From Rickettsiales bacterium (GTDB taxonomy: Bacteria; Pseudomonadota; Alphaproteobacteria; Rickettsiales; UBA8987): a DNA stretch of 64,000 nt. Positions 1,937-53,368 of the stretch are shown here, piece by piece. Each line of letters opens with the position of its first letter. The first letter of the stretch is position 1. The notes under the pieces were generated by a model. That model was not told the DNA's origin and made no database searches. It saw nothing but the letters and a program-made list of their open reading frames with translations. The stretch is from contig OZ244955.1 in the NCBI GenBank assembly GCA_965222525.1, positions 640,140-704,139 on the forward strand, read 5' to 3'. The translations under genes were made by a program, and so were the position numbers.

Positions 1937-1961
1937 TATTATATCAAGTATATATAACCAT

Positions 1962-3028: not shown

Positions 3029-3063
3029 TATATAGTGTTTATACCTGAAATATTTAATGAAAT

Positions 3064-3253
3064 GTCACCCCGGACGCATATTTTGTCCAAATCTATTGAT
3101 TTGGTTAACAAAATAGCGTTCTCGGGGTTATAAGCAAAAACACGTGCTGTTACTTATAACCCCGAGAATGGTGGTTTCTAAAACGAAATCATCCACCTTC
3201 GCTAAAGCTATGGTGGACAAGTAGATTTCGAGAAACCATCCATCCGGGGTGAC
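3064..3253 (+). repeat. structured palindromic repeat family A, copy 1 (190 bp, enlarged right arm)
   Basis: Termini GTCACCCCGGA...TCCGGGGTGAC. Inner stem TTCTCGGGGTTAT/ATAACCCCGAGAA. Two side hairpins. Homologous to 37278-37433 and, in inverted orientation, to 53205-53360. Confidence 0.85.
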
Positions 3254-3333
3254 AGGGGCTTAAATATACCAGGTTAAAATACTATAATATACTACCGCTA
3301 AAACCTGTAACCTGTCACTTAAAACCTGAAATA

Positions 3334-7728: not shown

Positions 7729-7808
7729 GTCTTAGGTTACAGGTTGTAGGTTACAGGTTTAAGTTTTAATATATAATAACTAGGAATTTGGTCAAATCAC
7801 TTGTAACA

Positions 7809-17883: not shown

Positions 17884-18411
17884 CTACCTGTCAACTTCAC
17901 ACGGAATCGCCGGCCATTTTGCAAGCTGATGCCTGGATTTATCAATTTGCCTATCTGTCAGGCGAGTTTTTATTTTGTTCCGGTAACGCTTTGCATCCTC
18001 ATTACCTTCCTCCACGGCAAGCTGGTAGTAGGTATAGGCCAGCACATCATCACGCGGTATAATGTTGCCCTTCTGCTTATGGGCATTTTCGTACAGTTTG
18101 CCAATTTCCAGCATTGCGTCACGTTGTCCGACATTGGCCGCCTGGCACCACCAGTATAATGCTTTTACCGTATCCCGATAAGGACGCTCGCCGCAGCAAT
18201 AGAGCTTGCCGAGTTTATACTGGGCCTCAGCATCGCGGGCAAATGCCAGCTGTTTCCATATCTGCCGCTTGCCTTCAATACCGGTATATTCTGCCCCCCT
18301 GAACCCCCATTCGATACATGACGTCAGGGCTATAACCATTATAGCCGGTACTGCCAGCCACTTTCCGGCTAATTCTAGGGAGATGTAATTTAAGGGTTTT
18401 CTTGCAGGCAT
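17884..18411 (-). CDS. Sel1-like (TPR-type) repeat protein with an N-terminal TM anchor
   Basis: Sel1-type repeats AEAQYKLGKLYCCG...KALYWWCQAANVGQRDAMLEIGKLYENA...LAYTYYQLAVEEGNEDA. Confidence 0.7.
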   Translation of the reverse strand: MPARKPLNYISLELAGKWLAVPAIMVIALTSCIEWGFRGAEYTGIEGKRQIWKQLAFARDAEAQYKLGKLYCCGERPYRDTVKALYWWCQAANVGQRDAMLEIGKLYENAHKQKGNIIPRDDVLAYTYYQLAVEEGNEDAKRYRNKIKTRLTDRQIDKSRHQLAKWPAIPCEVDR

Positions 18412-18717
18412 GGGTAGGGTATTTTCAGCGTAACTGAAAGCAATTTAATAGGAATTTTTCATAACTGCAATATGTTACGGATAAATTTGCTGAAGCCAAC
18501 AGGCGATATATGGTATAATAACAGTAATTCAACCTGAAATATCTACCTGCCTACTGCTCCCCCGCTTTACAGGGGAGCAGATGAGACAAGGGCTTAAGCC
18601 CGCAGTCGAATCGCGGGGGGTAGTGAGTAAGTGGAAAATAGAAACAGGAATGAGTTAGCTTCTGTTCCAGTTTCTATTTTCCAGTTTCCACACCTCCCGC
18701 CAATTCGCCAAGATGAC

Positions 18718-22585: not shown

Positions 22586-23353
22586 TTACTTATGCCTTGA
22601 GAATTTTTCCTTTTCTTTTTGATTTTTGGAGTCAATACCCATTTCTGGGAGAGTAGCAGGGTAGTAACTATATAATTGTTGTATACTTTCTATGGTAACG
22701 AAAGAGCCGTTCACCTTCACTCCGAATTTTTTCAGGTCATTAAGTACCCTCGACAGGGTTTCGGCCTTCATCCCCAGATAGCTGGCGGCAATTGATTTAT
22801 CATATGGCAGCAGGAAGGTCTTGTCCTTGCCGTTATATAGCTTCAGCAACAGTGATACAACCCGTTGCGGGGCCGACATAACCGTCAGCCGTTCTATATT
22901 GGAGCGCAGCTGATTAACACGCCTGGTGGTTACATCAAGCATATTCATCGTAATCTTGTGGTCGGAGGCCATAAGTTTGCGCATAATTCTAACCGGAATT
23001 TCCAGTACGGCCACCCTGCCATCCACGGCCTGGCCGCTGAAGGAAAATTGTGCAGAGTGGAAAACCGCCTCCTCACCCACTATATCACCACGGGTTATCA
23101 GATCCACTATCGACTCCTTGCCGTCGGTGGATTCACGAAACAGCCTCACCCAGCCGCTTAATATTATATAAAAGCATTCAATCGGCTCGCTATGGAAGAA
23201 TATTACGCTGCCCTTCTTATGCTCCTCTATATGCGCATTTTCAATCAGCAGCTCTTCCTGTGCTTTGGACAGGCGTCCCAGCAGCGGGGCGGATTTAAGG
23301 AATGCCAGTCCCCTGTCGCTTGCGGCCTTGTCGCTGCGTAGCTTTTTCTTCAT
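22586..23353 (-). CDS. Crp/Fnr family transcriptional regulator
   Basis: cNMP-binding beta-barrel (GSVIFFHSEPIECFYIILSGWVRLFRESTDGKESIVDLITRGDIVGE) and a C-terminal HTH (IAASYLGMKAETLSRVLNDLKKFG). Confidence 0.8.
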   Translation of the reverse strand: MKKKLRSDKAASDRGLAFLKSAPLLGRLSKAQEELLIENAHIEEHKKGSVIFFHSEPIECFYIILSGWVRLFRESTDGKESIVDLITRGDIVGEEAVFHSAQFSFSGQAVDGRVAVLEIPVRIMRKLMASDHKITMNMLDVTTRRVNQLRSNIERLTVMSAPQRVVSLLLKLYNGKDKTFLLPYDKSIAASYLGMKAETLSRVLNDLKKFGVKVNGSFVTIESIQQLYSYYPATLPEMGIDSKNQKEKEKFSRHK

Positions 23354-23469
23354 TATCTTCTCCCTTGAACTAACCTTATCACTTGTTTCCTTGCGGAAAA
23401 GTGCAGAAGTTAATTAACGGTTAATAATATAAGAAAATTGAGCCAGATCAAGTGCTTTTTAAGATTTTG

Positions 23470-24297
23470 TTAACTTTTTGGAGGGGAGAGAGGAGAAGCT
23501 ACGACAGATTTTGTAACGTTTTTGCGTAAAATCAGCCAGATTCCACCCAGAATCATGGGAATAGACAGTAATTGTCCCATAGTCAGGCTGCCGAATAAAA
23601 AGCCGATATGTTCATCAGGTTCGCGGTATAATTCAACAAACATACGGGAAATTGAATATCCGATCAGGAAAACACCCGATAATGCACCGGTTTTGTCACG
23701 CAATTTGCTCCTGAAGGCTATCAGCATGATGAAGAACAATAATATTCCTTCCAGCCCTGCCTCATATAGCTGGCTGGGATGACGTGCAAACGGGTCGTCA
23801 GGGAATATCACCGCCCAGGGAACATCGGTGGGGCGGCCATATAATTCACCATTGATGAAATTGGCAATCCGCCCGAAAAACAACCCTATCGGCGTTACAC
23901 AAGCGCATAAATCCATGAAGGACAGGAACCTCATCTTGTAGCGCCTGCACATCAGCCATGCGGCAACCATGGCGCCAAGCAACCCGCCATGGAAGGACAT
24001 CCCGCCATTCCATACCGCCAGTATCTGCGAGGGGTTTTTCAGGAAGAATTCCAGCCCGTAAAACAGCACATAGCCGAGCCTGCCCCCGACCATAATTCCC
24101 AGCACCGCCCATATGATAAAATCATCATAAGCCTTCTGGGACATAACCTTTGGCTCACGCCGGTCTAGCCTCCCCAGATACCACCATCCGAGAAATATCC
24201 CGACCACATAACTGAGCGCATACCAGCGTATATCCAGCCCGCCGACACTGAACAGTACAGGGTCTATATCAGGAAACGGAATACCAACATTTGCCAT
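23470..24297 (-). CDS. lgt: prolipoprotein diacylglyceryl transferase
   Basis: IRWYALSYVVGI, GGRLGYVLFY, GGMSFHGGLLG and HPSQLYEAGLEGILLF are Lgt signatures. Confidence 0.9.
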   Translation of the reverse strand: MANVGIPFPDIDPVLFSVGGLDIRWYALSYVVGIFLGWWYLGRLDRREPKVMSQKAYDDFIIWAVLGIMVGGRLGYVLFYGLEFFLKNPSQILAVWNGGMSFHGGLLGAMVAAWLMCRRYKMRFLSFMDLCACVTPIGLFFGRIANFINGELYGRPTDVPWAVIFPDDPFARHPSQLYEAGLEGILLFFIMLIAFRSKLRDKTGALSGVFLIGYSISRMFVELYREPDEHIGFLFGSLTMGQLLSIPMILGGIWLILRKNVTKSVVASPLSPPKS

Positions 24298-24387
24298 AAT
24301 TTTAGGTTGCAGGTTACAGGTTTTAGGTTACAGAAGGAGCCTGACCTGTTTATTATATGTTTTGATAGTAATGTGCAAGTTGTATGG

Positions 24388-25197: not shown

Positions 25198-26206
25198 AAA
25201 TAATATAGAAAAAATAATGGTAATAAATCTCGGCGGTACCCGTGAAATGGCGCTGGGGACTGCCGCTTTTGCCGCTATCCGCGAGTTTCATCCCAATGCG
25301 CATATAATCCTGCTTACCACCGCCAGATATGCTGAATTCGGCCAGCAATCGGGTTATTTCAATGAAATCTGGGTTGACCCGCTGCTCAACTGGTATGATG
25401 TACCGCAAGTCTTACATTTTCTGAAAAAGCTGCGCAACTCCGGTATTCAACTGGTATATGATTTGCAGAATGTCCGTCGCAGTAATATGTATTTCCGTTG
25501 CATGGGACGCAACAAACCCCTGTGGAACAGCAGCAATATTAACTGGTGTTCGCATTATTATGACAATCCCGATGCCCATCTGATGCATTTTCTCGACCGG
25601 CAGGCCGAACAGCTTATGGTTACGGGTATGGAATTTATACCGCCGCCCGATATATCATGGCTGCAGGCGGATATATCGAAATTTTCCTTTCTGGAGACAG
25701 GGCAGCCTTATGCATTGCTGGTGGCAGGCGGGCTTGAGGATGAGAAACAAAGCCGCTGGCCGGAGTCCGGCTATGTCGAGGTGGCGGAATGGCTGGCGGA
25801 GATTGGTGTATTGCCGGTATTTATCGGGGATGAAGCAGACAAGGCGCTGATAAAATCGATAGACCGTTCCTGTGTGCATATTGACATTGCCAATCTGGCC
25901 GGACGAACGAGTCTGGCCGATATTGCCGAACTGGCCAGGGGTGCGGTATTTGCTATAGGTGCCGGTGACGGTTACATGCATCTGATGGCACTGACCGGCT
26001 GTCCGTCGATTTTTCTTTATTCCGGCTATTTCGTACAGGAAATCCACACCCCGATAGGTGATGCGATAAATATCATGTATCAGCGCGAACCCTCGCAAAT
26101 CCTCCCCAGCACGGTTATAGACAGGCTGATTGAGATGTTCGGCCTTAACGAGGGGGAGGAGGCGCAAGATAATGAAGATGAGGAAGCCGAAAATGACAGT
26201 GCCTAA
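25190..26206 (+). CDS. family 9 glycosyltransferase (heptosyltransferase-like) with an acidic C-terminal tail
   Basis: IMVINLGGTREMALGTAAFAAIREFHPNAHIILLT and ...ELARGAVFAIGAGDGYMHLMALTGCPSIFLY fit the GT9 pattern. It overlaps the GT2 gene by 8 nt. Confidence 0.65.
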   Translation: MTENNIEKIMVINLGGTREMALGTAAFAAIREFHPNAHIILLTTARYAEFGQQSGYFNEIWVDPLLNWYDVPQVLHFLKKLRNSGIQLVYDLQNVRRSNMYFRCMGRNKPLWNSSNINWCSHYYDNPDAHLMHFLDRQAEQLMVTGMEFIPPPDISWLQADISKFSFLETGQPYALLVAGGLEDEKQSRWPESGYVEVAEWLAEIGVLPVFIGDEADKALIKSIDRSCVHIDIANLAGRTSLADIAELARGAVFAIGAGDGYMHLMALTGCPSIFLYSGYFVQEIHTPIGDAINIMYQREPSQILPSTVIDRLIEMFGLNEGEEAQDNEDEEAENDSA

Positions 26207-29200
26207 TGTCTTGGTGCTGGGCTGCGGCTGGAGTGGTCGTGGTTATGTTTATCATGCCCGTTTTTGCGGGGGAGGAGGCCGTTGTTCCTGGAGGCCAGGT
26301 CGTTATTGTCAGCATCAAGGCCGAGGTCACGCAGACCATCCACTATATTCTGCATTTCCTGTTCCTGTCTGGTGAGTGGCTTGTCTTTTTCGGCAGATTT
26401 TTCCTCGGACTTTTCAATATTTTTATTCTCTGCAATTCTCTGGTCAACATATTCCTGTATCCTGACCATATTGCGTTTCTTTTCTTCATCCGTATCGCCC
26501 AGCGGCAACAGCCCCTTTTCTATGAAAGGCTCCAGATTCTGCTCATTGAGGGATTGCAGGCCGGTTACATTACGCAACCTGTCATAGTTAAATTTATGGC
26601 CTTCTTCCTTCAGCTCCTTGATATCATCAAGCAATTCACGTTTGGCAGGGTCGAGGTCGATTATCCTGTCACGGCCGGATTCGGGCAGTTCAACCCCCAT
26701 ATCCCTGGCAACCCGCTCGGCGTTTTCCTTGATTACCGCCACTTGTGCGATCATCATATTGGAAATATGCATTTTCTTCTCGGCATCCTTACCTTCCGTT
26801 TTGAAAACCTTGCCATCGGAAAACTCCAATTTGTCCCTTTCCTCGGGGTTAAGCGGATTGACAAAACTCACATGTTCGGCAGATTTTTTCAGCACTTCCG
26901 CAGCCTTGTCATCACCATCCTTTTCGGCAATTTTGCCAAGCAGATATTCAGCCTCACGGGATGTGGCAAAATGGTTTAATTCCTCAAGCTGCTGCGCATC
27001 CATCCTTATATCACGTAATTCGTCCAGATTAACCGACTGGCCTTTTTCCAGCTTCAGCCCAAGCTTTTCCTGCAATTCCGCATCTGATATACTTTCCTCT
27101 GGCAGTGCGGCAAGCCGTTCCACCAAATCTTGCATATGCTGTGAACGGTTATCCTGATTGGCCAGATGTTGCGATGTTAGCTGGAACACATCCTCTGCAT
27201 CAGATGGAATCAGGTAGCGTGCGGCACTGACTTCCTTACCATCCACATCGGCATAAAACTCAATGGTTTTCCTGGCTTTGCCGTCATGGCCAAACGCACC
27301 GTCCGCACGCTCCACCTCACGATATTTCAGCTCACCCTCCATGCCGAAACCATCAGAATCATCCTGCAGCGCCCTGTTGATTTCCGTCATGGCCTGTTTA
27401 CGCTCCTGTTCTCCCAGTGCGATGAATTTATTCTCGGCCTCGGCCAGGGTACTCATCTTGAACACACCCCATGCAACCCTGCTGTACGCCTTGTCATCCT
27501 TCACCAGAACCGACCACACATCTTCCCCCCTGGCAAACTGCATATTACCCTGCTCGACAACCTCAAACAGGGTCGGGGCAATCCTGCCGGTAGTATTCTC
27601 ATCGCCGGTCACCAGAACCGCCATCTCATGGTCACTGATTGCCTTGCCGTGATCGGTCAGGTAGTCCATATTATAAAGAATATCCTCCTTCCTGGCCGCG
27701 ATATTACGCTGGTTATGCAGATGCTCATCCACTTCTTCGGCACGCCGGCCAACCGCCATCAATGCCGCAGCCGACATACCGCTCAGATAACCCTGCTCGA
27801 TATATTCCTGCGGAGACATCTCAACCTCACCAAAACCGTCATCAAATTTAACCCTGATTTCGCCGGAACTATCACCGCCCTCACTATCGCCCTTCGCAAG
27901 CTGTGCAGCATCTTTCTCACGTTTTTCCTCATCACCGAACAGGATAAAGGCCAGCCATGCCGCATCCATACCCGCCTGCTGCATAAGCTTGTCGATTTTC
28001 TCCCTGGTTTCGGTTGCCAGCCTGGTTTTCTCCTTCTCCTGACCGGGAGTTTTGGTTTGCTCGGGAGTAATTTCCGCATCATATATATTGTCATTAACCT
28101 GCTCCAGCACATCTTTATCAAATTTGTGCCTGCGCCATAAATGGGTCGATACCAGAGCAGTACCAATACCGCCCTCCACAGCGTCATCCCTGTATTGTGC
28201 AACCACCATACCGCTGTCATTGCGGAACACATCGGTAATACCACTGCCGGGTGCAAGATTGTTGATAGTATCCGTTATCCGCTTGCCTGCCTCCTCGGCG
28301 CTCATGCCGCTGCGCTCGGCCTCACGCATAAGGAAATCCGCACGATACTGGATATCATCGGCAATATCGGCATTTTCGAAAACCTCACCCATCTTCTGAA
28401 GTGAACGGTAATGGCTCTCCTCACGGCCAACATCCTTATGCGCAACCCACAGGAATTCCTTCAGCCCGTAAACGGTGGCAACCGTCTGGGCGGTTTCATT
28501 GGCCTCAACCAGAAAACCATGACTGTCACTATGCCAGATATCCTTGATATACCCCTCGCCAAGCGCAGGGTCCTTATCCAGCACCGACTTGATATCATCA
28601 CCCGTAATCCCGATCTTCCGCTCGGCATTGATAATATTGCGCTCTAACGCTGCCGCATCCTCCATCGCCGGAGCCTCATGCGGCATCATCATCCGCCATT
28701 TGGGGTGATATTGCGAATTAAACACCCGTACCAGATCATCTTTATTGTAAAGCTGGAGGTCAACTTTCTCGGTCTTGCCGAAATCATTGGTTATCGGTAC
28801 CTGATGCGCTACACCAATCTCAAAGTCAAATTTGTAATCCTTGTTTTTGGCAATTTGCTGCAAATCCCTGCCATGCATATTCATGGTCTGGGCAAGCTTG
28901 TCGAAAAATATCTTATTCTCGTCGGAACTGTTCTTGGGGTCAATGCCGCTATCCTGCATTATCATCGAGCCGGCCTCCTCTCCCATATTAACCATATTGG
29001 CCAGCATGAGGTTATATCTATGCTCCTGTTCCGACTCCATCGCAGCGGTAAGCTGCCTGACCTCATCCTTGCTTTTGCCTTCCTTCTTCAGGGATTTCTC
29101 GTATTGTTTGAGTTCCTTCTTCTGATGCTCCTTTAAATCCTTGCCGAATGTATTATCAAACTGCTCCTTTACGACACCAAACACAGTAGTGTGCTCGTCA

Positions 29201-37450: not shown

Positions 37451-37870
37451 CTACTTATTATCCGCTTCGGCGATGAAGGCATCGATCACCGACTGGGCTA
37501 TGTCAACCTCGCCCTGGGCGGCTTCCTTTTCCTTCTCGGTTTTTGCCTGCTGATGGAGCTTCTTGGTGGCCTCCAGACGCTTTTCCATGGCCTCTCTGGT
37601 ATGATTGGCAAAATCATAGGCCTCGGTAGCCAGTACCGTGCAGCGTTCATTGGTTATCTCGGCCACACCGCCGGCCACCAGATAGCGTGCCACTATCTCA
37701 TTGCCCTGATATGAGCGTATCACCCCCGGACGCAGATTGGATATCACCGGCGCATGTCCGGCCAGAACACCCATATCTCCCTCAGCCCCCGGCACAACCA
37801 CCATCTCCACCTCATCGGAGGAGAGAAGCTTCTCGGGTGTAACCAGGTCGAATTTTAATGACTGCGTCAT
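37451..37870 (-). CDS. atpC: F1 ATP synthase epsilon subunit
   Basis: LVTPEKLLSSDEVEMVVVPGAEGDMGVLAGHAPVISNLRPGVI is the epsilon beta-sandwich pattern. It is the last gene of the atp F1 set. Confidence 0.9.
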   Translation of the reverse strand: MTQSLKFDLVTPEKLLSSDEVEMVVVPGAEGDMGVLAGHAPVISNLRPGVIRSYQGNEIVARYLVAGGVAEITNERCTVLATEAYDFANHTREAMEKRLEATKKLHQQAKTEKEKEAAQGEVDIAQSVIDAFIAEADNK

Positions 37871-38335
37871 GATAATAGATGATAGATTATGGATGATAGA
37901 ATTAAATCTTTATTTTGCTTCGTAAATTTTGCAACATCCTTATTATAATTTCGTATTCATTATTCCAGTTATTAAAGGTTTTGGTATCTATATACCCCAA
38001 GTCAACACAATAGCACAACCAGATTTGCATTTCACTTGCGGAACCTATTGCTATGGAAATAAACCGCTTGAATTCTGCCTTTGAATGAGATTGTTTTACG
38101 AACCCCTCGGCCAGATTTGCACAAACAGACTTACTCGCCCTGCGCACCTGCTTGGCAAGGTCATACTGCTCTATCTGCGGAAATTCAAGACTTGCCTTAT
38201 GAATTTCCAGGGAGACAGCATAGGCTTTTTTAAAAACATCAAGGTCTCTTGCACTTTTAACCAGTCTTGAAGTTATATCCGTAACGTCTGCCATATTTTC
38301 CCCTCCATCATCCATCATCTATAATCCATCATCTG
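37871..38335 (-). mobile_element. IVS-like cassette 1: four-helix-bundle ORF bracketed by inverted repeats
   Basis: Arms at 37878-37899 (gatgatagattatggatgatag) and 38312-38333 (reverse complement gatgatggattatagatgatgg) match at 19 of 22 positions. All three differences are A/G. The cassette abuts the atpC start codon. Confidence 0.45.
37902..38294 (-). CDS. four-helix-bundle protein (23S rRNA intervening-sequence protein / Avd-like family)
   Basis: ARDLDVFKKAYAVSLEIHKASLEFPQIEQYDLAKQVRRASKSVCANLAEGF...AIGSASEMQIWLCYCVDLGYI matches the family pattern (F.vw..A..l...iy..t..fP..E.y.L..Q.rRAa.Si..NIAEG). The start is taken at MADVTD. The upstream MMDDGGEN is encoded by the repeat arm. Confidence 0.75.
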   Translation of the reverse strand: MADVTDITSRLVKSARDLDVFKKAYAVSLEIHKASLEFPQIEQYDLAKQVRRASKSVCANLAEGFVKQSHSKAEFKRFISIAIGSASEMQIWLCYCVDLGYIDTKTFNNWNNEYEIIIRMLQNLRSKIKI

Positions 38336-38360
38336 TTTATAGAACATATAATCGCCAGAT

Positions 38361-38735
38361 TCAATATGGTAAATTATCGGGAGCGACTCCGATATAGTCA
38401 GGCTCGGGGTTGGTGGTAAACTGAACGGCTTTTATTTGCTCCTCTCCCTGCAGAAATGCCTTGCCAACCCGGTGCATGCCGTCCATTACACGGCCATCCG
38501 AGGCAAGAATTATAGGAAAACTCAAGTCAGCGTCCCGGATTAGACCTGCATGCTCAAATACGCTTCTGCATGTAGGTGTTTTGCCATCAAGGAACCAGAA
38601 TGGTTCGTCAATTTCCCTTATTTCAGAAAGAGGAACCATCTTTGGTACGAACCCGCCGGAAAGCTCTATCAGACGGTCGATATCCCACGCTTTCAACCCC
38701 GCCCCGGACGGCTGGAAGTGATATTGCTTTCTCAT
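38361..38735 (-). CDS. small ParB/sulfiredoxin-like (ParB N-terminal domain) protein
   Basis: PIILASDGRVMDGMHRVGKAFLQG resembles the DGxHR core of ParB-N/Srx-fold proteins. This assignment is from memory of the motif only. Confidence 0.45.
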   Translation of the reverse strand: MRKQYHFQPSGAGLKAWDIDRLIELSGGFVPKMVPLSEIREIDEPFWFLDGKTPTCRSVFEHAGLIRDADLSFPIILASDGRVMDGMHRVGKAFLQGEEQIKAVQFTTNPEPDYIGVAPDNLPY

Positions 38736-38769
38736 GATGGTTGGGTGTTACAACTGTTTTTGTATTCCC

Positions 38770-39414
38770 TTAAAATCCTAAAGCACGTTCAGCACTTTTT
38801 AGCTCCTTAAGCTGGTTCTTAACACCAAGAGCTTCTCCGATTTTATTAGTGATAATACCTTCAATGATTTCTCTGGTTGATCTATCAGAAACCTGTTCTG
38901 CTTTATCATATGCCTCACCTATTGTTTTGCTCGGCAGTAGAGCTCCTAAAATTGTCGCAATGTTTTTATTGGTTCTATGCTCATATGTAACTTTCGCCTT
39001 CATTTCATTGTTATCAATTTCTAATGAACGTAGATTATCTCTATTCTTGTTTATGAAGTTGAACTGGGTTTCATAAGCACGAGCTCCTTCACCATACTTG
39101 GCTATAAACTCATTAAGCTTACCTTGTGTATTAGTTATAACTGCGCCAGGGTCTACTCTTGAAGCGCCATCAAAGGTATGCAAAGCGTTGCTTTCTATAA
39201 TGTTATAGTTGCCTCTTTCTCCGTATTCTTCTTTTGCTTTCTTGATAATCTGGTTTCTTGTAAGACTTTTTTCATTTTCCAAAGCAGAAGCAATTGAATA
39301 AATCGCAGCATTAACACCGGGTTGGATTTCATCAAAAGATGGATCCCCTGTTGCTAAATCTTTAGTGGACTGCGCCCAAGCTTTCACCTGATTGTTTTCT
39401 AGTTTGTCTGACAT
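38770..39414 (-). CDS. orphan protein (214 aa), cysteine-free, no signal peptide
   Basis: The start is chosen at MSDKLENNQ, preceded by AAGGAG with a 7 nt spacer. I recognise no family motif. It has its own promoter-like motif at 39489-39521. Confidence 0.5.
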   Translation of the reverse strand: MSDKLENNQVKAWAQSTKDLATGDPSFDEIQPGVNAAIYSIASALENEKSLTRNQIIKKAKEEYGERGNYNIIESNALHTFDGASRVDPGAVITNTQGKLNEFIAKYGEGARAYETQFNFINKNRDNLRSLEIDNNEMKAKVTYEHRTNKNIATILGALLPSKTIGEAYDKAEQVSDRSTREIIEGIITNKIGEALGVKNQLKELKSAERALGF

Positions 39415-39488
39415 TTCTCTCTCCTTAAAGTTAAAACCTGCCACCAATCCCCCCATGGAAAAGGTAGGCTGTTTTGTTTATGGGAGGG

Positions 39489-39521
39489 AGTATAGCAGAG
39501 AAATGTTAAAGTTTTATGACA
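39489..39521 (-). promoter_or_regulatory. extended -10 promoter-like motif shared with 29761-29793
   Basis: The minus strand reads TGTCATAAAACTTTAACATTTCTCTGCTATACT (TGnTATACT), about 70 nt upstream of the 39414 start. Confidence 0.45.
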
Positions 39522-39653
39522 GGATTACATTTTTTTGAAAAAATTTTCAGGAGGAGCCTAACCAGTTGGAATATATAGTTTTATTTTTGCAAAAATAATT
39601 TTGACAATCTGTCACTAGCAGTAAATATACCTGTATTTCCTTAAATAGTGTCG

Positions 39654-39872
39654 TCAAATTCTACCATTATGCGCTTCCACATAAGAGCGCAGAACGGCAT
39701 TCATATAGGACTGATAACCTTTTCCCTGTGATTTAAACCAGTCAACAACCTCTTTATCTGCACGGAAGGATATCATCTGCTTGGGAGAAGTATTGTGTAA
39801 TATCTTCAAATATTTCCAGAAATCACCGGTCAGGTCAGGAATATCGGAATAATCAATTTCGGAATCAGGCAT
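39654..39872 (-). CDS. BrnA-family antitoxin-like protein (no BrnT partner adjacent)
   Basis: MPDSEIDYSDIPDLTGDFWK...ISFRADKEVVDWFKSQGKGYQSYMNAVLRSYVEAH matches the BrnA pattern (DSEIDYSDIPE...ISIRLD.DVL.WFK..G.GYQT.IN..LR). The longer ORF start (39917, MMDDRGE) lies inside the repeat. Confidence 0.65.
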   Translation of the reverse strand: MPDSEIDYSDIPDLTGDFWKYLKILHNTSPKQMISFRADKEVVDWFKSQGKGYQSYMNAVLRSYVEAHNGRI

Positions 39873-39901
39873 CTCAGCCAATTCCCTAGCTGTTTTTTCT
39901 C

Positions 39902-39932
39902 CTCTATCATCCATCATCTATAATCCATCATC
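39902..39932. repeat. third copy of the GATGATGGATTATAGATGATGG word, abutting the atpD stop
   Basis: ctctatcatccatcatctataatccatcatc is identical to 38303-38333 except at one base. It is inverted relative to 37878-37899. Confidence 0.8.
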
Positions 39933-39938
39933 CAGCAG

Positions 39939-41372
<1,434 letters not shown>

Positions 41373-41386
41373 TTACTCCTTGAAAA

Positions 41387-41857
41387 GAAACTGGAAACTG
41401 GAAATTAGAAACTGGAATTTAATTACTTTCTGTCTTTAATCTTACTTCTGAGATTTTGCAGCATCCTGGATACGATATTATATTCCTCAACCCACTTGTT
41501 ATGCTTGTTTTTATCGATATAACCGAGATCAAGGCAATATTTTATCCATATTTTCATCTCTCCGCATGAACCTATCGACATAGAAACGAATCGCCGAAAT
41601 TCCGGAGTAGAATGCACTTGCTTATAAAAACCTTCTGCTAAATTTGCGCATACAGACTTGCTAGCCCTGCGCATCTGTTTAGCAAGGTCATATTGTTCTA
41701 CCTGTGGAAATTTAAGGCTAGTTCTGTGAATGTCCAGAGAAACAGCGTATGCTCTTTTGAAAACTTCCAAATCCTGAGGCTCTCTGACGTAACTGGAGAT
41801 GCTCTCAACATTACCCTCTTCCATACTTCCGGCTTCTAGTTTCCAGTTTCCAGTTTC
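41387..41857 (-). mobile_element. IVS-like cassette 2: four-helix-bundle ORF bracketed by a 24 nt inverted repeat
   Basis: 41387-41410 is gaaactggaaactggaaattagaa. The reverse complement of 41834-41857 is gaaactggaaactggaaactagaa. They match at 23 of 24 positions. The unit is 471 bp. Confidence 0.55.
41423..41824 (-). CDS. four-helix-bundle protein (23S rRNA intervening-sequence protein / Avd-like family), paralog of 37902..38294
   Basis: PQDLEVFKRAYAVSLDIHRTSLKFPQVEQYDLAKQMRRASKSVCANLAEGF...SIGSCGEMKIWIKYCLDLGYI is roughly two-thirds identical by eye to the other copy. The start is taken at MEEGNV. The upstream METGNWKLEAGS is encoded by the repeat arm. Confidence 0.75.
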   Translation of the reverse strand: MEEGNVESISSYVREPQDLEVFKRAYAVSLDIHRTSLKFPQVEQYDLAKQMRRASKSVCANLAEGFYKQVHSTPEFRRFVSMSIGSCGEMKIWIKYCLDLGYIDKNKHNKWVEEYNIVSRMLQNLRSKIKDRK

Positions 41858-41865
41858 CATATTTA

Positions 41866-42600
41866 TTATCCTTTCTCCGCAACCACCATCAATGACACCC
41901 CGAATGGAAATCTTATCTTTCCTATAAAAAACCTCTCGCTGCCAAAAATTTTTATCAGCAGGCTGTTAACGAAATTTCCCGGCAGGGTCAGGTTCGATAC
42001 CTTGCTTTTTTTATTTCTGAATTTCTCCACCATCCTCACCAGTGCTATCGGTGGAAACAGCCAGAAATTAAAATAGCTGGCATATTTTATATTAAAGCCC
42101 TCCGCTTTTAGCAATCCGGTCAGTCCCGCCCTGTTGTAGCGACGGAAATGATGATGGTCCGTATCATGTGCCGACCATAAAAACTGAAATGCCGGAACGG
42201 TCAGGAAAATCATACCATTATCTTTTAGCTGCCCTTTCAGTACCTCCAGTGTTTTCTGGTCATGTTCTATATGCTCAAGCACATCAAATGCAACAATTAA
42301 ATCGAACTTTTTATCCGCAAATGCAGTATTATCAGGCAATTCGATAGATTCGACATTTTCAGCAACTCCTTTTTCCCTTGCCACCTGTCTTGCGGTTGCA
42401 TCATATTCCGCTGCATAAACCCTGCCATATTGCGACAGCATCTCCAGATTGCCGCCACTACCGCAGCCTACTTCCAGAATTTCCGCATCCTGCGGAAGCT
42501 GCAACCTGTCAAGCATACGCCTGATTATCTTCCTGCGGGCAACAAACCACCAGTGCCTGCCCTCCAGCTCCGCCATCTTTATGTAGGCCTCGCGCTCCAT
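41866..42600 (-). CDS. class I SAM-dependent methyltransferase
   Basis: HWWFVARRKII plus SAM motif I ILEVGCGSGGNLEML and a post-I acidic residue. A GGGGAG Shine-Dalgarno sequence lies 5 nt upstream. It sits between atpG and atpD on the same strand. Confidence 0.8.
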   Translation of the reverse strand: MEREAYIKMAELEGRHWWFVARRKIIRRMLDRLQLPQDAEILEVGCGSGGNLEMLSQYGRVYAAEYDATARQVAREKGVAENVESIELPDNTAFADKKFDLIVAFDVLEHIEHDQKTLEVLKGQLKDNGMIFLTVPAFQFLWSAHDTDHHHFRRYNRAGLTGLLKAEGFNIKYASYFNFWLFPPIALVRMVEKFRNKKSKVSNLTLPGNFVNSLLIKIFGSERFFIGKIRFPFGVSLMVVAEKG

Positions 42601-42622: not shown

Positions 42623-43525
42623 CTACAATGCCTCTGCGCCCGAGATGATCTCGGTCAGTTCGGTTGTAATAGCAGCCTGGCGGGTACGGTTATATTGCAG
42701 GGTTAAATCCTTTATCATCTCACCCGCATTGCGAGTGGCGTTATCCATCGCAGTCATCCGTGCCCCCTGCTCGCTTGCCGCATTCTCCAGCTGGGCGTGG
42801 AAAATCTGCACCGCAATATTTCTGGGCAGAAGCGCAGATAAAATCTCCTCCTCGCCAGGTTCATATTCATATACGGCGGCTACACCATCCTCGGCCTCTT
42901 CCGCAAGAACCCCATCCATCTCCAATGGAATCAATTGCTGGAAGGTTACTTTCTGGGTAAGTGCCGATTCAAACTTGTTATACACAACCGAGCAGGAATC
43001 AATATCACCAGCCTCAAACATGGTAATAACCTGATTCGCAACCGCTTCCGACTGCACATATTCCGGCTTTGCCTGACTGGAAGTATCTATACGTTCCGAC
43101 ACATTATTCTCATAACCATGTTTTAGCTGTTCCCAGCCTTTCTTACCGACTATCATCAGTCTGGCCAGCTTGCCCTTGCCTTCCATTTCGGTGATTTTCT
43201 GCTTTATCGCCCGCACCAGAGAACTGTTCAGCCCGCCGCAAAGCCCGCGGTCAGAAGTAACCGCTATAATCAGATGATTTTTATCGGCAATATCTCCCGC
43301 CGCATCACGCCTGCCCGAAAGAAGCGCAGGGGAATTTTCCGGATCAGCCTTGGTCGCCAGAGCCGCAAGCATACGCTCCATCTTTTCGGTATATGGCCGT
43401 GCCGCCTCCGCACGCTCCTGCGCACGCTTGAGCTTGCTCGCAGCCACCATCTTCATCGCCTTGGTGATTTTCTGCGTAGACTTAACACTACTTATACGGT
43501 TTTTCAGGTCCTTGAGATTTGCCAT
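42623..43525 (-). CDS. atpG: F1 ATP synthase gamma subunit
   Basis: MANLKDLKNRISSVKSTQKITKAMKMVAASKLKRAQ and the C-terminal QAAITTELTEIISGAEAL are gamma signatures. Confidence 0.93.
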   Translation of the reverse strand: MANLKDLKNRISSVKSTQKITKAMKMVAASKLKRAQERAEAARPYTEKMERMLAALATKADPENSPALLSGRRDAAGDIADKNHLIIAVTSDRGLCGGLNSSLVRAIKQKITEMEGKGKLARLMIVGKKGWEQLKHGYENNVSERIDTSSQAKPEYVQSEAVANQVITMFEAGDIDSCSVVYNKFESALTQKVTFQQLIPLEMDGVLAEEAEDGVAAVYEYEPGEEEILSALLPRNIAVQIFHAQLENAASEQGARMTAMDNATRNAGEMIKDLTLQYNRTRQAAITTELTEIISGAEAL

Positions 43526-43765: not shown

Positions 43766-44029
43766 TCAGAAGTATTTTACTATAACAGTGATAACCAGCC
43801 AATTTTCTTCCTCCTCTACTGCAAAAACCTCAAGCTGCTTATTATCATAAAACTTCCTGTTCCAGTGAGAGGAAAAATTAAAAGTTCTGCGGAAACCTAT
43901 TCTACCATACTTTGCAGAAAATTGCTCTCCATTTTCAACTGTAGATATAACCTCTTCTCTGGTTGCACCCCTTTCAACCATTCTTGCTTCAGCATGGGGA
44001 TGAAATTTCACATCCATGATTCTTTCCAT
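43766..44029 (-). CDS. DUF4258-family protein (putative toxin partner)
   Basis: FHPHAEARMVERGATREEVISTVENGE fits the DUF4258 N-terminal pattern (H...RM..R.I....V). Its ATG at 44029-44027 overlaps the atpA TGA (TGATG). Confidence 0.6.
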   Translation of the reverse strand: MERIMDVKFHPHAEARMVERGATREEVISTVENGEQFSAKYGRIGFRRTFNFSSHWNRKFYDNKQLEVFAVEEEENWLVITVIVKYF

Positions 44030-45564
44030 CAACTTTTCGCAAACACCTTAACAAATTTATCCAACGCGCTGCGGAGTTCCTTTTCGCTGTCTTCGGATAA
44101 TTTGCCTTCATTGCGGATTACATCCAGCAACCCCTGGTGTTTGCCATGCATTTCGCTCAGGAATTCCTTTTCAAAACGGGTTACATCCTTTGCATCTATA
44201 TCATCGAGATAACCATTTACACCGGCAAAGATGGAAACCACCTGCTCCTCCACCAGCAGCGGTGAATACTGGTCCTGCTTGAGCAGTTCCACCAGACGTG
44301 AACCGCGTGCCAGAAGTTTTTGCGTAGCCGCATCAAGGTCGGAGCCGAATTGTGCAAATGCCTCCATTTCACGGAACTGCGCCAGTTCCAGCTTAATCTT
44401 GCCTGCCACCTGTTTCATACCCTTGATTTGCGCTGCCGAACCTACCCTCGATACCGACAGTCCAACATTTACCGCCGGACGTACACCCTTATAAAACAGC
44501 TCGGTTTCAAGGAATATCTGGCCGTCGGTAATTGAAATCACATTAGTCGGGATATAGGCGGATACGTCACCGGCCTGGGTTTCGATAACCGGCAGGGCGG
44601 TAAGTGAACCGGCACCTTCTTCATCCGACATTTTAGCAGCCCGCTCAAGCAGCCGCGAGTGCACATAGAATACATCGCCCGGATAAGCCTCACGCCCCGG
44701 CGGACGGCGCAGCAATAGCGACATCTGACGATAGGCCACCGCATGTTTGGACAAATCATCATATGCAATCAGCGCATGCTTGCCGTTATCACGGAAATAC
44801 TCACCCATTGCACAGCCGGTATATGGTGCGAGGAACTGCAGCGGCGCCGATTCGGATGCGGTTGCGGCAACTATAATTGAATATTCAAGCGCACCTTCCT
44901 CCTCCAGCTTTTTGGCTATCTGCGCTACAGTCGAGCGCTTTTGCCCGATACACACATAGATACAGTAAAGTTTTTTACTTTCATCATCGCCTGCATTGAT
45001 GGATTTCTGGTTGAGGAATGTATCAAGAATCACGGCGGTCTTGCCGGTCTGACGGTCGCCGATAATCAACTCACGCTGGCCGCGCCCTACCGGAATCAGC
45101 CCGTCAATCGCCTTGATACCGGTCTGCACCGGCTCATGCACCGATTTACGTGCGATAATACCGGGAGCCTTTACCTCGATACGGGAACGGTTTTCGGTTA
45201 TCACCGGCCCCTTACCGTCGATAGGATTACCCAGCGCATCCACTACGCGGCCAAGCAGTTCGGGTCCTACCGGTACATCAACAATCCGGCCGGTACGCTT
45301 GACCGTATCGCCCTCCTTGATTTCCTTCTCGCCACCGAACAGCACTACCCCGACATTGTCCTCCTCGAGATTCAGCACCATCCCCACATTACCGCCGGGA
45401 AACTCCACCATCTCACCGGCCTGCACCTGGTCCAGCCCATATACGGTTGCAATACCGTCACCGACCGACACCACCTGCCCGATTTCTGCCAGTTCCGCCT
45501 CGGTTGAGAAATTGGCAATCTGCTTCTGCAAAATGCTTGATATTTCCGCTGCCTGAATTTGCAT
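44029..45564 (-). CDS. atpA: F1 ATP synthase alpha subunit
   Basis: [19 protein letters not shown] (P-loop) and [23 protein letters not shown]. Confidence 0.96.
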
Positions 45565-45617: not shown

Positions 45618-45842
45618 CCTCCCCCGCTTGCGGGGGAGGTAAGAAATTCTAGAAATCCATGTCCTCCGTAGCTTTAGCGCAGGAGGATTGATTTCAGAAT
45701 TTCTGGTGGGGGAATGTGTAAGTGTAAAGTGTTGAGTGCTAAGTCTCCTGCTGCAAACTCTCAGCACTTTAACCATTCCCTCCCCGAAAATCTGGCAATC
45801 AAAGATTGCTCAGATTTTCTCCCCTCCCGCAAGCGGGAGGGG
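45618..45842 (+). repeat. hairpin-terminated structured repeat family B, copy 1 (225 bp)
   Basis: Left terminus CCTCCCCCGC-TT-GCGGGGGAGG and right terminus CCCCTCCCGC-AA-GCGGGAGGGG are each perfect 10 bp hairpins. Internal hairpins include AGAAATTCT..GAATTTCT and GAAAATCTG..CAGATTTTC. It is collinear with 51643-51858. Confidence 0.85.
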
Positions 45843-45854
45843 TAGCTCCAGCTA

Positions 45855-46412
45855 TTACCCGGCTTTCTTCAAATAAACCTTTACCCTGTCCAGTTTTCCG
45901 CTCAGCGAGTCATCCAGCATTTGTGAGCCGATTTTTACAATCATCCCGCCGAGTATATCTTCGTCAAGCTTTTCCTCAACAGCCACTTCCTTGCCGGTCA
46001 TTTCTTTAAGTTCATTACCTATGCGGGTTATATCTGCCTTATCAAGCTTGTTTGCAACCGTAATTTCCGCCTGAACCTCCCCGCGCGCATTTGCAGCAAG
46101 CTCGGAGAAAGACGCACATATATCCGGCAAAAGCGATAACCTGCGGTTTTCCCCCAGTAATGCACAAAACTGGCCAATCAGTTTATCCGCCTTGATTTTC
46201 TTTACAATATCACCAATAGCAGCAGAAAGCTCTGACCTGGAAGTAGTCGGATTGCTCAAGGTTTTCTGTAATTCCTGCGATGACGCAATCACCGAATCAA
46301 GTTCATTTAATCCGGCTTCGATTTCTTCCAGCTTTCCCCCGGCCTTGCCAATCTCGAACAGCGCCTTTGCATAACGCCTGCCCAATACCAATTTCCCGAC
46401 TTTCCTTGCCAT
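45855..46412 (-). CDS. atpH: F1 ATP synthase delta subunit (OSCP)
   Basis: GRRYAKALFEIGKAGGKLEEIEAGLNEL... and the C-terminal GGMIVKIGSQMLDDSLSGKL fit the delta/OSCP pattern. It is the first gene of the F1 operon. Confidence 0.85.
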   Translation of the reverse strand: MARKVGKLVLGRRYAKALFEIGKAGGKLEEIEAGLNELDSVIASSQELQKTLSNPTTSRSELSAAIGDIVKKIKADKLIGQFCALLGENRRLSLLPDICASFSELAANARGEVQAEITVANKLDKADITRIGNELKEMTGKEVAVEEKLDEDILGGMIVKIGSQMLDDSLSGKLDRVKVYLKKAG

Positions 46413-46611: not shown

Positions 46612-48684
46612 ATGCCCGATTCTTCAGTACAGAATGAAAAACCCAAGGCAGCTTTCAGCAAGGAAAAGCTGGTTGAGATGAAGAAGGGTAATCTTGATCC
46701 TAACTATAAAATAAAATTCAATAGTGTAATTTCAGATTTGAGTTCTGATTTTGCCAATGCCTATGAGGCGGAGAATATCCATGCAACCAGGGACTCAGCC
46801 CCGCTTTATGCACTGGTATTCAACGTCAATTTCCCGATACGGATGAAGGCAATTGAGACGCTGCGCAAGATACAGCATCCCAGCCTGGTACAGGTGGTGG
46901 CTTTCGGCAAGACGATAACCGCCGGCACCAAGGCCGAGCGTTTTGCGGTGATTCTTGAGCGCCCGCAAGGGGTAAGGCTTTCACAGGCGCTTAAGGACAG
47001 TTCTCCTTTCAATGAGCTTTATGTTGCGGATAAGGTGATGGAGCAGCTTGCTGGGGCGCTGGCACTGCTGGCGGAGAATCGCATAACCCATGGTCGGATT
47101 AACCCTGATAATATCTTTTACAACAAGGCTGCCGCACGCCTGATTATCGGCGAGCCGATATCGGAATTCTGTGGCTATAGCCAGATGGCGGCGTATGAGG
47201 ATATTGACCGTGTTGTAGCGCATCCTGCCGGCAAGGGTGACAGCGACCCCAAGGCGGATTACTTCGCCCTCGGCATGGTGCTGCTATTCATGCTCACCGC
47301 CAGACAGCCATTTGCCGGCAAGGATAATGACAGCATTATCGACACCCGCTTTGAGCATGGCTCACATGAGGCGGCGATATCCGAGACCCTCGCACTCACT
47401 AAAATCCGCCTGTCGACCCGCATCCATACTCTGCTCAAAGGCCTGCTTTCCGATAATTCGGCGGAGCGATGGGGCAGGGATGAGCTGGATTCATGGATGA
47501 AGAAGTTTGAGATTATCGCCCAGGCATCGAAGATGCACAAGCTTGCCGCTACCGGATTTATGTTTGATGACAAGGAGTATTTCGGCATCCGCTATCTGGC
47601 ATATGACATAGGGCGCAAATGGAATATAGCCAAGCGCACATTGAAGATAGCCGATTTATCGCGCTGGTTCAGCCTGTCACTCAAGCGCCCCGACCTGTCG
47701 GAGAAGGTGGAATATCTTCTTGACCACACCGGCAACAGCGAGGTTATTCTGCCTGACCATAAAATCACCCGCATAATCTCGATTCTGGACCCATCCGGCC
47801 CGATTCGCCATAATGAGCTTTCCTGTCGTATTTCCGGCTTCGGCAATATGCTTGCCAGTTGTTATATGGGCAAGGACAAGGCGAATATCCAGAATATCGG
47901 TGCGGTATTTGCCGAGGGTCTGGTGGAGAACTGGATACGCCAGCAGCCTGATCCGGAATTATTCAGCTATAGTATGCTTGGCTGGAGCCCTGCCAAGATA
48001 CGGGTATATATGCGGCGTTCCTCGATGGGATTTGGTATGGAGCGTGCGTTATACGAGTTTAATAAATTTCTGCCCTGCCAGAGTAAATTGATGGCCGATA
48101 AATATGTATCGAACCTGGCGGATTTGCTGGTTACGCTGGATAAATCGGCGGAGAGCCTGGGCGAGAAGGATGCGCAGGATCGTCATCTTGCGGCTTTTAT
48201 CGCCAGCCATATTAATCTGACCGATGAGATGAAAATCAAGAGCCTGCAGAATTTCCCGCGGATAGCCAAGCATCCGGGGGTTATGATGCTGGGATTGCTG
48301 ACGGTTGCGCAATCGGAAGCGAGGGTTAAGTCGGTCAAGGGTGTTACCGAATGGATGAAGGGTCTGATATCGGCTTTCTCCGAGGATCTGCACAGCAAAT
48401 TCATCCGCAAGGAGATGCAGGGGAAACTGCGGGTAGCGGCAAAGGATGGCAAGCTGGCCACGTTATTTCAGGCGATATCGAATCCGGTATTTATCCAGCG
48501 TGATGCATCGGGTTTTCGTGAGGCCAGGATGCAGTACAAGGCGCTTGGTGCGCAGATACAGCAGCTCAAAACCCAGGGACATATCAGGCGGGTGGCCTAT
48601 CAGCTCGGCCTGCGCATATCGGTCACCATCTCATACCTGGTCTGCATAGCCTCGGCGTTGTATGTGTATTTCGTGAGCGGCTAA
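46612..48684 (+). CDS. protein-kinase-fold protein lacking catalytic residues (predicted pseudokinase) with a long C-terminal region and a C-terminal TM anchor
   Basis: ITHGRINPDNIF stands in place of HRDLKPxN, so the catalytic Asp and Lys are absent. LIIGEPIS stands in place of DFG. A subdomain IX-like DYFALGMVLLFMLTARQPF is present. The terminal segment ISVTISYLVCIASALYVYFVSG is hydrophobic. Confidence 0.55.
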   Translation: MPDSSVQNEKPKAAFSKEKLVEMKKGNLDPNYKIKFNSVISDLSSDFANAYEAENIHATRDSAPLYALVFNVNFPIRMKAIETLRKIQHPSLVQVVAFGKTITAGTKAERFAVILERPQGVRLSQALKDSSPFNELYVADKVMEQLAGALALLAENRITHGRINPDNIFYNKAAARLIIGEPISEFCGYSQMAAYEDIDRVVAHPAGKGDSDPKADYFALGMVLLFMLTARQPFAGKDNDSIIDTRFEHGSHEAAISETLALTKIRLSTRIHTLLKGLLSDNSAERWGRDELDSWMKKFEIIAQASKMHKLAATGFMFDDKEYFGIRYLAYDIGRKWNIAKRTLKIADLSRWFSLSLKRPDLSEKVEYLLDHTGNSEVILPDHKITRIISILDPSGPIRHNELSCRISGFGNMLASCYMGKDKANIQNIGAVFAEGLVENWIRQQPDPELFSYSMLGWSPAKIRVYMRRSSMGFGMERALYEFNKFLPCQSKLMADKYVSNLADLLVTLDKSAESLGEKDAQDRHLAAFIASHINLTDEMKIKSLQNFPRIAKHPGVMMLGLLTVAQSEARVKSVKGVTEWMKGLISAFSEDLHSKFIRKEMQGKLRVAAKDGKLATLFQAISNPVFIQRDASGFREARMQYKALGAQIQQLKTQGHIRRVAYQLGLRISVTISYLVCIASALYVYFVSG

Positions 48685-51642: not shown

Positions 51643-51858
51643 CCTCCCCCGCTTGCGGGGGAGGCAAGAAATCCAGGGATTTTCAATCCTTAGGATTTCT
51701 GGTGGGGGAATAAATAAGTGCAAAGTGTTGAGTGCTAGGTCTCCTGTTGCAAACTCTCAGCACTAAACACACAGCACTCGGCACCTCATCATTCCCTCCC
51801 CGAAAATCTGGAAAGCATAGCTTTCTCAGATTTTCTCCCCTCCCGCAAGCGGGAGGGG
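51643..51858 (+). repeat. hairpin-terminated structured repeat family B, copy 2 (216 bp)
   Basis: It has the same termini and order of hairpins as 45618-45842. It fills the gap between the M16 peptidase stop (51860) and the trpE start (51618). Confidence 0.85.
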
Positions 51859-53191: not shown

Positions 53192-53204
53192 AGTTACGAT
53201 TACT

Positions 53205-53360
53205 GTCACCCCGGATGGTATGTTTTCTCCAAATTTTAATTTGGTAAGAAAACACCATTCCCGGGGTTATTATATAAGTCACGGAATTGTACAGGTAACC
53301 CCGAGAACGTTATTTTGTTACCAAATCACAGATTTGGACAAAATATACGTCCGGGGTGAC
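53205..53360 (-). repeat. structured palindromic repeat family A, copy 3 (156 bp, inverted orientation)
   Basis: Its reverse complement aligns along its full length with 37278-37433. The right-arm apical stem is CCAAAT/ATTTGG instead of CTGAATC/GATTCAG. Confidence 0.85.
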
Positions 53361-53368
53361 ATACATTA

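Follow-up and report, generated by a model that had tools for sequence, protein, structure and literature searches.

The window analysed here, a 64-kb stretch of DNA, is drawn from a 2.1-Mb contig in which toxin-antitoxin genes, heptamer repeats and cassettes abound. Its minus strand carries an atpHAGDC row of ATP synthase genes that is broken three times, between atpH and atpA, between atpG and atpD, and between atpD and atpC. Pfam matches place atpH at 45855-46412, atpA at 44029-45564 and atpG at 42623-43525; atpD occupies 39939-41369 and atpC 37451-37870. The break between atpH and atpA is a 290-nt gap with a repeat element. Between atpG and atpD lie a methyltransferase gene (41866-42600) and a gene of the 23S-rRNA-IVP family (41423-41860), both on the minus strand and both identified by Pfam; the members of this family are proteins encoded in 23S rRNA intervening sequences. 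The AtpD protein shares about 85-90% identity with proteins labelled Rhodospirillaceae, Rickettsiales, Dongiaceae and Stellaceae, which places the source organism in the Alphaproteobacteria. Among the contigs used for comparison, the atp operon is compact in one (L238) and contains two small inserted ORFs in another (L239).

In two other alphaproteobacterial contigs, the spacing between atpD and atpC is 12 and 120 nt, so the approximately 2 kb found between these genes here (37871-39932, minus strand) is taken to be an insertion. Its ends are inverted arms of heptamer repeats (37871-37900 and 39903-39932; repeat families I17 and D18) that are 87% complementary. Reading away from atpD on the minus strand, the insertion contains a BrnA-like ORF (39654-39917; Pfam), a promoter-like site termed site 2 below, a gene for a 214-aa orphan protein (38770-39414) preceded by the Shine-Dalgarno sequence AAGGAGAGAG, an ORF of 124 aa (38361-38735) with no Pfam match at E<=0.001, and a second gene of the IVP family (37902-38318; Pfam). 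Gaps of 31-42 nt separate the 214-aa gene, the 124-aa ORF, the IVP-family gene and atpC from one another, and no terminator-like site is predicted on the minus strand from 39489 to 37451. The short gaps, together with the lack of a predicted terminator, suggest that site 2 may also feed atpC, and the 124-aa ORF, the IVP-family gene and atpC (37451-38735) are probably co-transcribed from it. A stretch of the 124-aa ORF, ...DGRVMDGMHR..., recalls by eye the DGxHR motif of ParB/sulfiredoxin-like proteins.

Both IVP-family genes of the atp row are flanked by inverted arms of about 30 nt composed of heptamer tandem repeats (GATGGAT/GATGATA, or GAAACTG). The arms are found at 37871-37900, 38296-38333 and 39895-39932, also at 41387-41417 and 41827-41866, and at 18665-18690. 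By pairing, the arms could create a long stem that holds the gene in its loop, in the manner of 23S rRNA intervening sequences, and the sense-strand arm also provides a ribosome-binding site, GGAGG, immediately ahead of the ATG. The third copy of the arm lies past the atpD stop codon, so that the entire atpD-atpC insertion is bracketed.

The 214-aa protein has no homologue among 5.8 billion clustered proteins and no match in Pfam or the PDB. Its gene has a GC content of 37% and a GC3 of only 29%, against 52-62% for the GC3 of neighbouring genes, and this low value makes it look foreign and recently acquired. A single-sequence AlphaFold2 model is all-helical and poor (pLDDT 45). A second orphan, of 1150 aa, is encoded some 10 kb away at 26203-29655, also on the minus strand. 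This ORF stands alone, as a monocistronic gene 442 nt downstream of a pilin-like gene, and a site termed site 1 lies ahead of it. It too is without homologues, whether in the 5.8 billion clustered proteins or in 1.84 billion representatives (full HMMER search), and without matches in Pfam or the PDB; its GC3 of 56% is native-like and its single-sequence AlphaFold2 model is unreliable (pLDDT 39). The ORFs of 113 genome-derived loci (L127-L239) include no homologue of either protein, and pairwise comparison finds no similarity between the two. They resemble each other in character only: as an earlier note on this DNA had remarked, both are free of cysteine and leaderless, and both are in addition acidic, hydrophilic and devoid of any hydrophobic segment or signal peptide. 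Neither has a recognisable phosphate-related function.

The same note drew attention to two minus-strand 33-mers, one ahead of each orphan gene, and these are present exactly as it quoted them. Site 1 (TGTCATAAAGCTGTAACATTTCTATGGTATAAT, 29793-29761) and site 2 (TGTCATAAAACTTTAACATTTCTCTGCTATACT, 39521-39489) are identical at 28 of 33 positions, and each ends in an extended -10 element (TGnTATAAT and TGnTATACT, respectively). The hexamer CTGAAA, said to recur some 28 nt further upstream, begins 28 nt before TGTCAT at site 1 and 29 nt before it at site 2; the two copies are out of register by one base, and each is followed by a run of A. The -10 ends 105 nt before the ATG of the 1150-aa gene and 74 nt before that of the 214-aa gene. 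A start assumed to lie about 7 nt past the -10 gives leaders of about 99 and 68 nt, close to the 100 and 70 nt originally estimated. The leaders give no sign of being an RNA element: there are no Rfam matches in the window, the fold z-scores are -1.2 and -2.0, and nothing is common to both.

The resemblance of the two sites is well above chance and sharply bounded. A degenerate form of the 33-mer, allowed up to three mismatches, matches these two sites only in the window, where none would be expected. The intergenic DNA, defined by a greedy ORF cover, comes to 7,074 bp; when all its 33-mers were compared on both strands, the direct-repeat pairs with at least 28 of 33 identities were sites 1 and 2 and members of two longer repeat families. 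When the same DNA was shuffled 60 times, the best pair of 33-mers reached 22-27 identities and never 28. Alignment of the 320-340 nt of upstream DNA shows identity collapsing on either side of the 33-nt block, and a repeat finder extends the likeness to about 46 nt at 76% (family D17). A larger duplication including coding sequence, which had been named as a finding that would speak against a shared motif, is absent, the likeness being confined to these 46 nt or so and lying outside coding DNA. Nor do two copies in the window amount to a dispersed repeat, a long element present many times. No further site with up to two half-site mismatches and a TAnnnT hexamer was found in the 64 kb.

The motif is best read with an 11-bp period, as (C/T)TGTCATAAA(A/G) / CT(T/G)TAACATTT / CTnTGnTATAmT, in which two direct-repeat units of 11 bp, (C/T)TGTCATAAAn and CTkTAACATTT, precede the extended -10. 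At site 2, the first 18 bp of this repeat, CTGTCATAAAACTTTAAC (39505-39522, minus strand), agree with the E. coli PhoB consensus at all but one position (17 of 18). Unit 1 consists of CTGTCAT+AAAA; unit 2 begins with CTTTAAC and has an A/T tail, ATTT, that runs to 39501. The extended -10, TGCTATACT, follows at 39489-39497, with its hexamer TATACT at 39494-39489. The corresponding box at site 1, TTGTCATAAAGCTGTAAC (29777-29794, minus strand), agrees at 16 of 18 positions, has an ATTT tail that runs to 29773 and is followed by the extended -10 TGGTATAAT at 29761-29769 (hexamer 29766-29761). Site 1 has in addition a third unit upstream, ATTCATAAAAT (tATTCATAAAA-T, 29795-29805), in 11-bp phase with the other two and covered in part by an overlapping PHO-box match with one mismatch at 29788-29804. 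Transcription would be expected to start near 39482 at site 2 and near 29754 at site 1.

Three published descriptions of the PhoB-binding site bear on this reading. In E. coli, the consensus reads CTGTCAT-A(AT)A(TA)-CTGT(CA)A(CT) (PMC3465305), and it explicitly allows the odd second half of the motif, TAAC. The PHO-box unit has been defined as 11 bp made up of seven conserved and four A/T-rich bases (PMC4415409); both sites contain two tandem 7+4 units, as this definition demands, and the unit structure explains why ATTT is conserved after TAAC. A cross-species PHO box, TKTMAYHWWHYNKTMAY / NTKTMAYHWWHYNKTMAY, has been described around the -35, and placing it at the -35 of a constitutive sigma-70 promoter brought that promoter under phosphate control (PMC8601176). 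In the 128 kb given by the two strands of the window, the cross-species box is matched exactly by site 2 and nowhere else; site 1 differs from it at one position. When one mismatch is allowed, the window holds 10 matches against 5.5 expected. Of these, two lie close together at 23420-23436 (minus) and 23458-23474 (plus), in the AT-rich spacer that separates the Crp-like gene from lgt, and another at 36089-36105 (minus), about 130-150 nt upstream of tamA; with a total so little above chance, such additional matches may be meaningless.

The position of the box relative to the -10 is equally regular. Exactly 10 nt separate the 18-bp box from TATACT at site 2 and from TATAAT at site 1, and the distance is also 10 bp in the E. 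coli phoA and pstS promoters. A scan for sigma-70 promoters found no -35 hexamer paired with either -10 (at site 2, a TTGACA-like hexamer at 16-18 nt was sought); the nearest match at site 1 (TTGTCA, 17 nt, TATGGT) uses another -10, 5 nt upstream. The absence of a -35 is expected of activator-dependent promoters. The conservation over 33 nt is thus accounted for by a putative 22-bp site for a PhoB dimer and the extended -10, with about four shared bases left unexplained.

The same pattern occurs elsewhere, and the genes downstream of it are informative. One genome from each of 185,579 species was scanned for TGTCATWWWNNTNTAACW-N9-TATANT with fixed spacings, and at least 111 stretches matched; downstream genes were counted for the 80 matches listed that have an ORF starting within 400 nt on the same strand. 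Among these 80, a PBP_like_2 protein of the PstS family is encoded downstream in 12, PHO4 transporters in two, PPK1 and PPK2 in one each, BPD_transp_1 permeases in two (of which one is a PstC carrying DUF3708) and OmpR-type regulators in four, all by Pfam. Individual look-ups among the matches listed added a phytase-like protein, an OprO/P phosphate porin and another porin, and PstB was identified by eye downstream of the match at locus L140. Genes of the PstS type are estimated to make up about one per thousand genes or fewer, so their occurrence at 15% of the matches listed represents an enormous enrichment. The association extends to the Alphaproteobacteria, with PstS in the acetobacterial genus Bombella (L210) and PstC in a metagenome-assembled genome (MAG; L213).

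At the positions that the pattern leaves free, the 22 Pho-linked matches have a pyrimidine at position 0, C at 11 (14 of 22), G at 13 (21 of 22), A at 18 (all 22) and A or T at 19-21, and both sites in the window follow these preferences save for T at 13 in site 2. The distance from the -10 to the ATG in the Pho-linked matches is mostly 20-100 nt; the 74 and 105 nt of the window fall at the upper limit of this range or slightly beyond it. Neither the TG of the extended -10 nor the CT in the spacer that follows the box is general among these matches. As the two sites share these bases beyond what PhoB would need, common descent of the promoters may contribute to the 28 of 33 identities, and they hint either at such descent or at a lineage-specific variant of the promoter. 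Among the matches inspected, the external 33-mer closest to the two sites is TGTCATATTAATGTAACATTTCTCCGCTATAGT (6095-6127 of locus L189), which precedes the gene for a phytase-like protein in a MAG of the Methylococcaceae; its presence there indicates that the ATTTCT after the box recurs independently. In an unclassified MAG (L230), the motif occurs three times within 8 kb, at 1801, 3796 and 6477 on the plus strand, ahead of genes for a TPR protein, a TonB-dependent receptor and an ExbB-like protein; the cluster may be a phosphate-controlled TonB uptake system.

Taken together, these observations argue that the shared motif is a PhoB-type Pho-box promoter, a reading to which we give a probability of roughly two in three. 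Each 33-mer would be a complete activator-dependent sigma-70 promoter, with a Pho box at the -35 position and 10 bp before the extended -10. When phosphate is scarce, PhoR would phosphorylate PhoB; each 11-bp unit would then be bound by one winged-helix domain of the phosphorylated dimer, and the dimer, lying head-to-tail on the box, would recruit RNA polymerase in place of the -35 contact, transcription beginning about 7 nt past the -10. The 1150-aa and 214-aa orphans would thereby be inducible by phosphate starvation, as probably would the small genes down to atpC. From the sequence we infer the existence of PhoB/PhoR in this organism, as we do the binding of PhoB, the start sites, the induction and the read-through into atpC. 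No pst or pho genes are recognised by Pfam within the 64-kb window. Many good PhoB sites of E. coli are transcriptionally inert, most of these being intragenic (PMC10294691); unlike them, the two sites described here sit correctly ahead of a -10. Two strong sites per 64 kb would be a high density if maintained genome-wide.

The promoter type itself is ordinary, even textbook; it is the targets that are unusual. The PHO boxes of E. coli phoA, pstS and ugpB and those of Sinorhizobium and Rhizobium likewise consist of two 11-bp units, CTGTCAT, an A/T spacer and CTGT(C/A)A(C/T), and in proteobacterial Pho promoters the box stands in for the -35 at a distance of 10 bp from the -10 and may be extended by further in-phase units. 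The promoters of the window differ from these in serving orphans without phosphate function, in that one of them lies in a cassette within atpHAGDC, and in having an extended -10 TG that is atypical of Pho-linked matches. More distant relatives of the box are also recognisable. The boxes of Bacillus PhoP are repeats of TT(A/T/C)ACA and those of cyanobacterial SphR have the form PyTTAAPyPy(T/A); the promoter-proximal unit of the window, (T)TTAACA(T), fits both, which reflects a recognition mode that PhoB-family regulators would have in common, whereas the upstream unit, TGTCAT, is of the proteobacterial form.

What the earlier note had proposed, namely that two genes 10 kb apart belong to one regulon with a shared operator, is supported by the sequence as far as a shared type of regulated promoter ahead of two unlinked orphans is concerned, as is the suggestion that the orphan inside the atp row has a promoter of its own. 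The operator is probably not the dyad that had been described, and the two genes would presumably form one regulon.

Orphan targets are not peculiar to this window. In MAGs labelled Rickettsiales or Alphaproteobacteria, the pattern precedes ORFs without a Pfam match in nine of the 11 cases examined, two of these MAGs were matched twice (L159/L162 and L148/L163), and several of the sites carry a TGn extended -10, as do those of the window. In the Rickettsiales-labelled MAG CAYGTX01, locus L162 has a divergent pair of motifs, at 4422 (minus) and 4472 (plus), with three ORFs lacking Pfam matches downstream, wedged between dnaX-recR and ribBA; L159 is a further site on a different contig of the same MAG.

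These targets could be taken to indicate some other regulator of the OmpR/PhoB family, one with PhoB-like half-sites that controls lineage-specific and possibly secreted orphans. The Cys-free, hydrophilic orphans without signal peptides, the Sel1, HEAT and eukaryote-like Ser/Thr kinase proteins encoded in the window and the MAG sites just described, with their Pfam-less ORFs, double matches, divergent pair and common TGn, would all suit such a regulator. We nonetheless consider it unlikely: TGTCA(T) is the signature half-site of PhoB, the same pattern marks alphaproteobacterial pstS and pstC (L210 and L213), and this consensus is not known for any other regulator of the OmpR family. PhoB controls virulence and accessory genes as well, so that orphan targets need no other regulator, and their prevalence in the MAGs is equally compatible with a PhoB that has many lineage-specific targets. 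A parallel in logic for a separate regulator is provided by the effector promoters controlled by PmrA in Legionella and Coxiella, where a tandem repeat bound by an OmpR-family protein also lies immediately before the -10 and the genes are likewise lineage-specific and poor in homologues. The PmrA system differs in belonging to Gammaproteobacteria and serving Dot/Icm type IV secretion, whereas the window shows no genes for type IV secretion, and the PmrA half-site, cTTAATatT, is unlike those found here.

It is also quite unlikely, in our estimation, that the two sites are merely constitutive extended -10 promoters, one copied from the other by promoter capture or on a mobile element, and that their resemblance to a Pho box is incidental. 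An extended -10 can function without a -35; the 28 of 33 identities include positions that are unconstrained in other Pho promoters (CT and TG, at 22-26); there is weak additional likeness upstream, in the A-run and CTGAAA; and the 214-aa gene, foreign in composition and sitting in a mobile-looking cassette, could have received its promoter second-hand. Against this, the block agrees at 16-17 of 18 positions with an independent, experimentally derived consensus and stands at the right distance from the -10, and chance agreement is improbable when the one exact match to the degenerate box in 128 kb, both strands counted, is site 2 itself. Nor is there any other copy in the window, and neither the promoter motif nor the promoter together with the 214-aa gene finds a match in plasmids or phages. 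A scan of metagenomes with the strict pattern gave two matches, one of them on the contig of L206, which argues that the motif is not a spreading element.

The reading of TGTCA-N8-TAACA as an imperfect dyad stands to the extent that an inverted match of 4/5 is present; this parsing is probably wrong all the same, and the best reading is a direct repeat. Internal symmetry by itself gives the direct reading no advantage over the inverted one, and it is external evidence that favours the former. In the pstS promoters of L166 and L190, the units run three or four head-to-tail in 11-bp phase, and four such units argue for a direct repeat over a dyad in this class of motif. A palindromic operator common to both genes, bound by a dimeric helix-turn-helix repressor or activator, is therefore highly improbable, for although the inverted match is 4/5 at both sites and a Crp/Fnr-family gene lies within the window, the dyad spacing differs from the N6 of Crp and from the N4 of Fnr, three or four head-to-tail units, as in L166, L190 and site 1, would not follow from a palindrome, and the association with pst genes points to PhoB. 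The original reluctance to link the motif to the Crp/Fnr-type gene (22586-23353) was well judged, as it fits neither TGTGA-N6-TCACA nor TTGAT-N4-ATCAA.

Other operators were considered and rejected. As a CRP/FNR-type operator, the motif would have arms of TGTCA and TAACA, N8 spacing and a symmetry of 4/5 only. The CtrA consensus is TTAA-N7-TTAA(C); site 1 reads GTCA-N7-GTAAC and site 2 GTCA-N7-TTAAC, with the first half mismatched in both. The consensus of PmrA is CTTAAT-N5-CTTAAT and that of CpxR GTAAA-N5-GTAAA. Half-site mismatches with the respective consensus sequences dispose of the alternative-sigma, CtrA, Crp/Fnr, ArcA and PmrA readings.

If the assignment to PhoB is correct, phosphate starvation would be the first functional handle on two proteins without relatives. 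The inserted cassette would bring a regulated promoter into the middle of an ATP synthase row and could uncouple atpC from its operon. The analysis also illustrates how a motif known from two sites can be assigned to a regulator through the genes found downstream of the same pattern across sequenced species. A broader proposal, which we regard as doubtful, is that a poorly sampled alphaproteobacterial lineage has recruited its strongest PhoB-type promoters to lineage-specific orphans, possibly secreted or host-directed, one of them on a mobile cassette that splits atpD from atpC and makes expression of the epsilon subunit partly dependent on phosphate starvation. The same recruitment would then appear independently in Rickettsiales-like MAGs.

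Several further elements of the window deserve mention. A gene for a 690-aa eukaryote-like Ser/Thr kinase (46612-48684, plus strand) lies directly upstream of atpH and is divergent from it, and proteins with Sel1 and HEAT repeats are encoded at 17884-18411 (minus) and 1575-2549 (plus); such features are often found in host-associated bacteria. A palindromic intergenic element of about 160 nt, with nested inverted repeats (GTCACCCCGGA...TCCGGGGTGAC; families D1, D5, D8 and I1-I14), occurs at 3031-3286, 37276-37437 and 53201-53362 and has no Rfam match. One copy immediately follows atpC and may serve there as a terminator or a processing site. Another element, of about 150-165 nt and ending in CCCCTCCCGCAAGCGGGAGGGG, is present at 45696-45842, between atpH and atpA, and at 51692-51858, between the gene for an M16 peptidase and trpE; its copies are 90-93% identical (families D2 and D3). 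A second family of heptamers, AGGTTAC/AGGTTGT, is found in intergenic DNA at 7727-7766, 24304-24329 and 3283-3327 (families D13, I9 and I24), and short tandem heptamers seem typical of the genome in general.
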